NCBI RefSeq assembly: GCF_003334785.1 | Contig: NZ_QOWV01000009.1 | Length of the DNA stretch: 64,000 bases | Source of the DNA: Escherichia coli | GTDB lineage: Bacteria; Pseudomonadota; Gammaproteobacteria; Enterobacterales; Enterobacteriaceae | Reading direction: 5' to 3' (one strand) | Shown: piece after piece, positions 61,721 to 61,920 of the stretch | Numbering within the stretch: the stretch's first letter is position 1 | How the letters are laid out: the number at the start of each line of letters is the position of its first letter | Made by a program: the position numbers and the translations under genes | Notes under the pieces: generated by a model | The model's database searches: none | Told to the model about the DNA's origin: nothing | Seen by the model: the letters and a program-made list of their open reading frames with translations, nothing else

Positions 61721-61920
61721 CACGACTGCCGGATGCGGCGTGAACGCCTTATCCGGCCTACACTTCGCCCGTAAGCCGTAGGCCTGATAAGACGCGCAAA
61801 GCGTCGCATCAGGCATGGCGCACGACTGCCGGATGCGGCGTGAACGCCTTATCCGGTCTACACTTCGCCCATAAACCGTAGGCCTGATAAGACGCGCATA
61901 GCGTCGCATCAGGCATCTGC
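61721..61920. repeat. BIME: two tandem ~100-bp REP-containing units between frmB and yaiL
   Basis: cacgactgccggatgcggcgtgaacgccttatccgg(c/t)ctacacttcgccc...gtaggcctgataagacgcgca(a/t)agcgtcgcatcaggcat occurs twice in tandem (about 61721-61814 and 61821-61914). Confidence 0.85.

Follow-up and report, generated by a model that had tools for sequence, protein, structure and literature searches.

The 223-bp spacer between the convergent genes frmB and yaiL of Escherichia coli is taken up by palindromic repeats in tandem, which poses the question of what kind of element they form, where it came from, and whether its role, if any, lies in the RNA or in the DNA of this locus.

Anatomy and class of the frmB–yaiL array

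An earlier note on this DNA had described two ~100-bp units, each with two REPs, repeated head-to-tail as a tandem BIME between frmB and yaiL; the RefSeq annotation agrees with that site. The array is extragenic, lying wholly between the stop codons of the two genes, with 13 nt from the frmB stop to the first REP stem; given the RefSeq limits of frmB (plus strand) and yaiL (minus strand), it therefore fills the convergent spacer. Tandem Repeats Finder (TRF) places it at 61720-61928 with a period of 100, 2.1 copies, 94% matches, no indels and a score of 376. In a gap-free repeat search, 61720-61816 aligns with 61820-61916, the two copies differing at 4 of 97 nt (96% identity), and there is a third, partial copy of the unit start, the 10-nt GCGCACGACT at 61919-61928. 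The head-to-tail description is borne out by both programs, as is the 100-bp periodicity that a self-alignment was expected to reveal, and the two REP strings quoted at the time are present, GCCGGATGCGGCGTGAACGCCTTATCCGG at 61728 and 61828 and the other, GTAGGCCTGATAAGACGCGCA followed by A or T and then AGCGTCGCATCAGGC, at 61778 and 61878. The coordinates proposed then, 61721-61920, had the right position and were 1-8 nt off the true limits of 61720-61928. Positions below are those of the window, that is, the whole 64,000-nt stretch of DNA that was analysed, and the features at the locus are as follows.

60881..61714, plus strand: frmB, named fghA in RefSeq (S-formylglutathione hydrolase), TGA stop at 61712-61714
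61613..61924, minus strand: mechanical 103-aa ORF with a GTG start, from the program-made ORF list, crossing the repeats and overlapping the frmB 3' end in antisense
61720..61928, unstranded: whole BIME-2 array, two full 100-bp units plus a terminal head-to-head linker motif (TRF, repeat search, alignment)
61720..61727, plus strand: left flank copy of the head-to-head linker motif GCACGACT
61728..61761, plus strand: first Y-type REP (iREP orientation), stem 61728-61757, CTAC at 61758-61761
61762..61777, unstranded: first tail-to-tail short (S-type) linker, ACTTCGCCCGTAAGCC, 16 nt
61778..61815, plus strand: first Z2-type REP, GTAG at 61778-61781, stem 61782-61814, loop of 5 nt
61781..61858, minus strand: Rfam RF02564 naRNA4 match spanning the second Y, the linker and the first Z2, 79.6 bits against a gathering score of 59.5
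61815..61827, unstranded: head-to-head linker ATGGCGCACGACT, 13 nt between stems, base 61815 common with the first Z2
61828..61861, plus strand: second Y-type REP, C-to-T at 61857 giving a weaker basal pair, CTAC at 61858
61862..61877, unstranded: second tail-to-tail linker, ACTTCGCCCATAAACC
61878..61915, plus strand: second Z2-type REP, GTAG at 61878, stem 61882-61914
61916-61928: final copy of the head-to-head linker motif
61924, plus strand (frmB sense): Term-seq RNA 3' end (K-12 377325, K-12 minus strand), 10 nt past the stem of the second Z2
61938..62477, minus strand: yaiL (DUF2058 protein, RefSeq), stop at 61938-61940, 23 nt from the stem of the second Z2

All four REPs have 14-nt arms that are 86% complementary, and each folds on both strands at about -17 to -22 kcal/mol with an internal mismatch; the RNA hairpin of the first Y unit is predicted at -21.3 kcal/mol on the plus strand and -20.9 on the minus strand, and that of the first Z2 unit at -21.8 / -21.3 kcal/mol. 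The array region as a whole is more structured than its shuffles (z = -6.2 on the plus strand, -4.2 on the minus strand). The linker motif GCACGACT recurs at 61820-61827 and 61921-61928, so that the array is bracketed by short direct repeats; the head-to-head linker ATGGCGCACGACT was placed by alignment to the linker of the Rfam naRNA4 consensus. The positions, types and strands of the PUs were also tabulated by fuzzy regular expressions, and REP counts were taken from half-site patterns; a single 34-nt degenerate REP pattern matched nothing in the window, since Y and Z2 do not have loops of the same length. Shuffled sequence would give 0.66 occurrences of the REP core GCCKGATGCGRCG; the 64-kb window has 14, a count far above chance. 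A terminator scan of the spacer (61715-61937) returned no hairpin with a T-run, and no promoter-like site lies inside the frmB–yaiL spacer.

By definition (PMC3333891), a BIME-2 combines Y and Z2 REPs that face in opposite directions, joined by a short S linker and accompanied by short flanking motifs, in multiple tandem copies whose number differs from strain to strain. At frmB–yaiL, the REPs alternate as Y, Z2, Y, Z2 in opposite orientations, with 16-nt tail-to-tail and 13-nt head-to-head linkers and 2.1 tandem copies, and strain alleles carry one, two or three units. As is typical of E. coli REPs, each is an imperfect, GC-rich palindrome of ~35 nt with an internal mismatch and a GTAG/CTAC foot, extragenic and with many dispersed copies, a REP-containing query finding a median of at least 34 places per genome. 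In the alignment with the Rfam model derived from REP325, the Z units of the array fall on its Z2 hairpin; the Z1 unit found elsewhere in the window, at 10819-10848, is shorter than they are. Two other classes were rejected: a BIME-1 (RIP/RIB), as 61700-61945 holds no IHF-like match with one mismatch or fewer and the units are Z2 and tandem, and a CRISPR-like array, as the would-be “spacers” are the same in both units and the repeats proper are REPs. The explanation favoured here, and held with high confidence as a whole, is that the feature is a BIME-2 array that would have originated as selfish or neutral DNA and would act locally at the RNA level.

With the BIME-2 family (Gilson/Bachellier/Hofnung; Ton-Hoang et al. 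2012, PMC3333891), the array shares Y/Z2 alternation, linkers, tandem arrangement, extragenic position and variable copy number; there is no structural difference, its linker sequences being locus-specific in the way usual for BIME-2. The array stretch is 100% identical to that of E. coli K-12 MG1655 and of several further strains, and the element is thus already known, an ordinary BIME-2 member in every feature testable. Catalogues of K-12 have listed REP and BIME elements for decades, and since the locus is identical to its K-12 copy the array matters little as a discovery.

Kinship and the other REP loci of the window

The Rfam naRNA4 model aligns to the array unit almost base for base. REP325, the source of that model, consists of alternating Z2 and Y units (preprint 10.64898/2026.03.23.713779). 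The model also matches the mak-araJ array (30602-30681) and the mhpE-mhpT array (63887-63962) and amounts to a model of BIME-2 units in general; that it matches all three arrays confirms one common architecture, in keeping with the earlier observation that the same Y/Z2 layout appears at mak-araJ and upstream of mhpT. REP325 itself (yjdM-yjdN) has the Y-linker-Z2 unit in common with the frmB–yaiL array but comprises 12 PUs between tandem genes of one operon, as against 4 PUs between convergent genes; it has been shown experimentally to be a 3'UTR stabiliser and a partial Rho-dependent attenuator (preprint 10.64898/2026.03.23.713779). BIME-1 elements, such as the one between yajD and tsx, resemble the array in being inverted REP pairs in a convergent intergenic region; they are, however, single-copy, with a shorter Z1 and a long linker containing an IHF site, none of which the array has. 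The REPINs mobilised by RAYTs in Pseudomonas fluorescens (PMC3116915) share with it an inverted REP doublet as the unit and a presumed reliance on a single-copy domesticated Y1 transposase, whereas the REPIN sequence family is species-specific and E. coli BIME-2 forms tandem arrays. GTAG and the stem mismatch, which mark the REP substrate of TnpA-REP in vitro (PMC3333891), are present in the array; the transposase gene lies outside the window. The other REP loci of the window are the following.

4657-4696: isolated REP unit
10747-10848: BIME-1 in the yajD-tsx spacer, with a Y REP, a long linker, a Z1 REP at 10819-10848 and an IHF-like site ATTCAATATATTG at 10796
30541-30773: mak-araJ BIME-2, Y/Z2
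32756-32794: isolated REP unit between ykiD and rdgC
42831-42867: degenerate REP-like palindrome
63884 to the window end (64000): mhpE-mhpT BIME, Y/Z2, cut by the window end

On these figures, the window is not unusually BIME-rich, contrary to what the earlier note held. It has six clear REP loci and one degenerate one in 64 kb, and 4.9 would be expected from the 355 REP loci annotated in K-12, at 355 per 4.64 Mb, according to PMC4550694 and preprint 10.64898/2026.03.23.713779; the Poisson P(>=6) is 0.37. Likewise, if the 208 “BIME-2 sites” of PMC10592627 are equated with loci, ~2.9 BIME-2 arrays would be expected, and the window has three.

The mak-araJ array, like that of frmB–yaiL, lies between convergent genes and is length-polymorphic; the tail-to-tail linkers of the mak-araJ and mhpE-mhpT arrays differ in sequence from those of frmB–yaiL. 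At 30703-30773, the mak-araJ BIME carries one lone 31-bp Z2 unit more than MG1655 (NC_000913.3), visible both in BLAST, whose two segments are offset by 31 bp, and in TRF, which gives a period of 31 with 2.3 copies. The mhpE-mhpT array has been reported as a hotspot for lac-amplification junctions (PMC3161906). Between frmB and aroM, MG1655 (NC_000913.3 377535-407300) has 2,597 bp more than the window (~34546-61714). This length is presumably that of the MG1655 IS2 and IS3 copies combined, with their target duplications; from the size match, the window would therefore come from a K-12-like strain without those IS2/IS3 copies, not from the reference.

Copy number, origin and rearrangement of the array

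A flank-only query matched 5,418 of 5,426 complete E. coli genomes, and insert lengths were read in 57 chromosomes taken in even steps down the match ranking.

Insert ~110 bp, 32 of 57 chromosomes: one unit
Insert ~210 bp, 23 of 57 chromosomes: two units
Insert 311 bp, 1 of 57 chromosomes: three units
Insert 988 bp, 1 of 57 chromosomes: IS1 insertion

An empty site (insert of 0 bp) was found in none of the 57. The comparison of copy number across strains, proposed with the original description, has thus been carried out, and the number does differ. When the alleles are aligned, the flanks are perfectly conserved and the differences are whole units; one one-unit allele carries a different tail-to-tail linker. 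The linker of the one-unit allele of NR3736, CCGGATGGCGCGGGAATTT, resembles the reverse complement of the mhpE-mhpT linker (window 63966-63982), a similarity that suggests exchange or conversion between neighbouring BIMEs.

Further from E. coli, the spacer of a divergent Escherichia genome holds a single unit, whose linker measures 7 nt; the linker motif on the right-hand side is missing there. The 120 yaiL loci listed from a wider search included one Escherichia genome; in the other genera, the downstream neighbours of yaiL differ, and no E. coli-type REP occurs among the loci listed except for a remnant in Pseudocitrobacter. In Pseudocitrobacter faecalis, yaiL is followed by a hairpin resembling an intrinsic terminator and then by a BIME-1-like remnant made of a linker with TTCAATATATTG and a Z1 unit. 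Presence in E. coli and Escherichia, and not in the other genera listed, therefore points to an insertion in the Escherichia lineage that has since expanded and contracted. The array would be neutral or selfish DNA that owes its seeding and diversification to the REP-associated tyrosine transposase (TnpA-REP, RAYT), and would grow and shrink through unequal exchange or slippage between units; since alleles of one, two and three units are each common or viable, the extra units need have no function.

The array has also taken part in rearrangements. In the F plasmid of TG1, an F' pro-lac derivative, yaiL adjoins yafJ, and a three-way alignment shows the F' sequence (locus L006, 2420-2735) following the K-12 gmhA-yafJ BIME (locus L007, 1600-1845) up to the second Y REP and from there on the frmB–yaiL array, with the crossover within 9 bp common to both BIMEs, CTTATCCGG (61848-61856), inside the second Y REP. 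Judged by this alignment, the yafJ|yaiL junction of F' pro-lac is a REP-REP recombination, a reading that agrees with the title of a 2003 paper by Kofoid et al. A literature search on yaiL, frmB and REP gave the lac-amplification paper PMC3161906 as its sole match, in which a figure legend marks a REP “between yaiL and yafJ”. In strain A36 (locus L132, NZ_CP028739.1, 690-2150), IS1397 sits in the second Z2 loop, at a site corresponding to ~61896-61900 of the window, with a CAA target duplication. Insertion into REP loops is the known target preference of IS1397, which the title of a 1999 paper by Clement et al. supports. Strain PKF8 (locus L131, NZ_CP156813.1, 483-1250) has an IS1B in the extreme 3' end of frmB, which shortens the annotated coding sequence; this insertion is just upstream of the BIME, not within it.

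RNA ends at the array and its possible roles

RNA ends at the locus are available from Term-seq of MG1655 (Adams et al. 2021, PMC7815308, supplementary files 1 and 2). Coordinate mapping places the frmB-sense 3' end at K-12 377325 at window 61924, and the sequence listed for it is identical to window 61874-61934. That end is a strong one, with 100,650 reads in LB at OD600 2.0, comparable to the dapD terminator with 114,224 in the same sheet; it is reported in one of three growth conditions and is classed as “antisense to yaiL”, not as an frmB terminus (PMC7815308). Under the preferred explanation, transcription of the frmRAB operon would run through the array and end further downstream, whereupon 3'-to-5' exonucleases would trim the transcript back to the distal hairpin, capping and stabilising the message. 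Such a protection model, in which downstream termination is followed by 3'-to-5' trimming to a stable stem, has been described for REPs (PMC6061677; preprint 10.64898/2026.03.23.713779). A 3' end just past the distal hairpin fits what the model predicts, and termination at that very point would also be compatible with it.

More generally, REPs are credited with acting as barriers to 3' exonucleases and as partial Rho-dependent terminators (preprint 10.64898/2026.03.23.713779; PMC6061677); what they do depends strongly on context, and a terminal REP does not as a rule go with a longer half-life (preprint 10.64898/2026.03.23.713779). In the supplements of the same preprint, yaiL figures only in a differential-expression list, where it is not significant. 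The functional role proposed for the array is drawn from the behaviour of its family and from one public data set, and partial Rho-dependent attenuation is plausible as a secondary effect.

On the opposite strand, yaiL-sense 3' ends are listed at K-12 377694/377696 (plus strand), inside antisense frmB, and a Rho termination region at K-12 378012 (plus strand; score 5.8, P = 1.7e-10; PMC7815308). The former map to window ~61553-61555 on the minus strand, ~160 nt beyond the array, and the latter to window ~61237 on the minus strand, antisense in frmB, so that yaiL-sense RNA crosses the array and is stopped further on by Rho. The Term-seq sheets list no BIME-associated 3' end for yaiL-sense RNA, and a bidirectional role is for that reason unsupported on the yaiL side.

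A different reading assigns the array primarily to DNA, as a strong, transcription-independent gyrase site that would act as a barrier to topology, setting the frm domain apart from the mhp/yaiL domain; we regard this as possible, though unlikely. Gyrase cleavage sites are over-represented in BIME-2 elements, chiefly in Y REPs, with a signal that rises with rifampicin (PMC6379681), the affinity of BIME-2 for gyrase exceeds that of BIME-1 (PMC1475751), and BIME-2 sites have been reported at the borders of supercoiling regions (PMC10592627); the array holds two Y units, at which gyrase binding is plausible as a BIME-2 property. Cleavage sites were, however, seen in only “a subset” of BIME-2 elements (PMC6379681), a paper that does not name the frmB–yaiL locus and whose text supplements have no frmB or yaiL row. 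The one-unit allele is moreover the commonest, and a gyrase role would be compatible with one in RNA.

Less likely still is a role as a translational throttle on FrmB, in which the first Y hairpin would stall the terminating ribosome and lead to mRNA cleavage and tmRNA tagging. The gap from stop to stem is 13 nt in the window and 15 nt in five other alleles (counted by hand), both inside the range of <16 nt reported to be required for REP-dependent stalling (Liang et al. 2015, as cited in PMC12306157). According to PMC12306157, that distance is also found for 260 of 496 classical REPs, and because about half of them qualify, the gap does not distinguish this locus. Some damping of FrmB translation by the array is nevertheless plausible, because its first hairpin lies 13-15 nt past the stop codon. 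A further idea, that unit number (one, two or three) together with the stop-proximal first hairpin constitutes a heritable, strain-specific dial on frmRAB stability or FrmB translation, and on antisense yaiL read-through, is a speculation to which we attach little probability; if it were true, natural alleles would differ measurably in formaldehyde tolerance.

The remaining alternatives fare worse. It is very improbable that the array is a gene for a naRNA4-like nucleoid-associated small RNA, whose Y/Z2 RNA would bind HU, bridge REP cruciforms and compact the chromosome. The Rfam match exceeds its gathering score and yaiL-sense transcription does cross the array, but the family models any BIME-2 unit and also recognises the two other BIME-2 arrays of the window; the spacer is devoid of a promoter-like site, and the Term-seq ends listed for the yaiL-sense strand include none that would mark a discrete RNA of naRNA size. 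The nucleoid role proposed for naRNA4 RNA is itself disputed, REP325/naRNA4 having produced no nucleoid compaction and no specific REP-REP contacts (preprint 10.64898/2026.03.23.713779). A canonical bidirectional Rho-independent terminator is hardly to be believed in either: strong GC-rich hairpins do occur on both strands between convergent genes, and some REPs coincide with published bidirectional terminators (preprint 10.64898/2026.03.23.713779), but the scan showed no hairpin with a T-run in the spacer and yaiL-sense RNA reads through into frmB, where the Rho-dependent region was mapped. Finally, the chance that the 103-aa ORF is a protein-coding gene is practically nil, for although it is uninterrupted and GTG-initiated, it is absent from the RefSeq annotation of K-12 and of the other strains examined, runs antisense through the frmB 3' end with a sequence that amounts to translated REP palindromes, and changes frame in one- and three-unit alleles because 100 bp is not a multiple of 3; the earlier note had rightly called it spurious.

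Taken as an ordinary BIME-2 array, the locus carries some practical lessons. The naRNA4 match should be taken to mean “BIME-2 unit” and not a dedicated sRNA gene, and annotation pipelines should suppress the 103-aa ORF. The array is also an instructive example of its kind: it would cap a transcript 3' end, it varies in length from strain to strain, and it is a hotspot of recombination and insertion: F' pro-lac was joined in its second Y REP, and in a wild isolate IS1397 has entered one of its loops.
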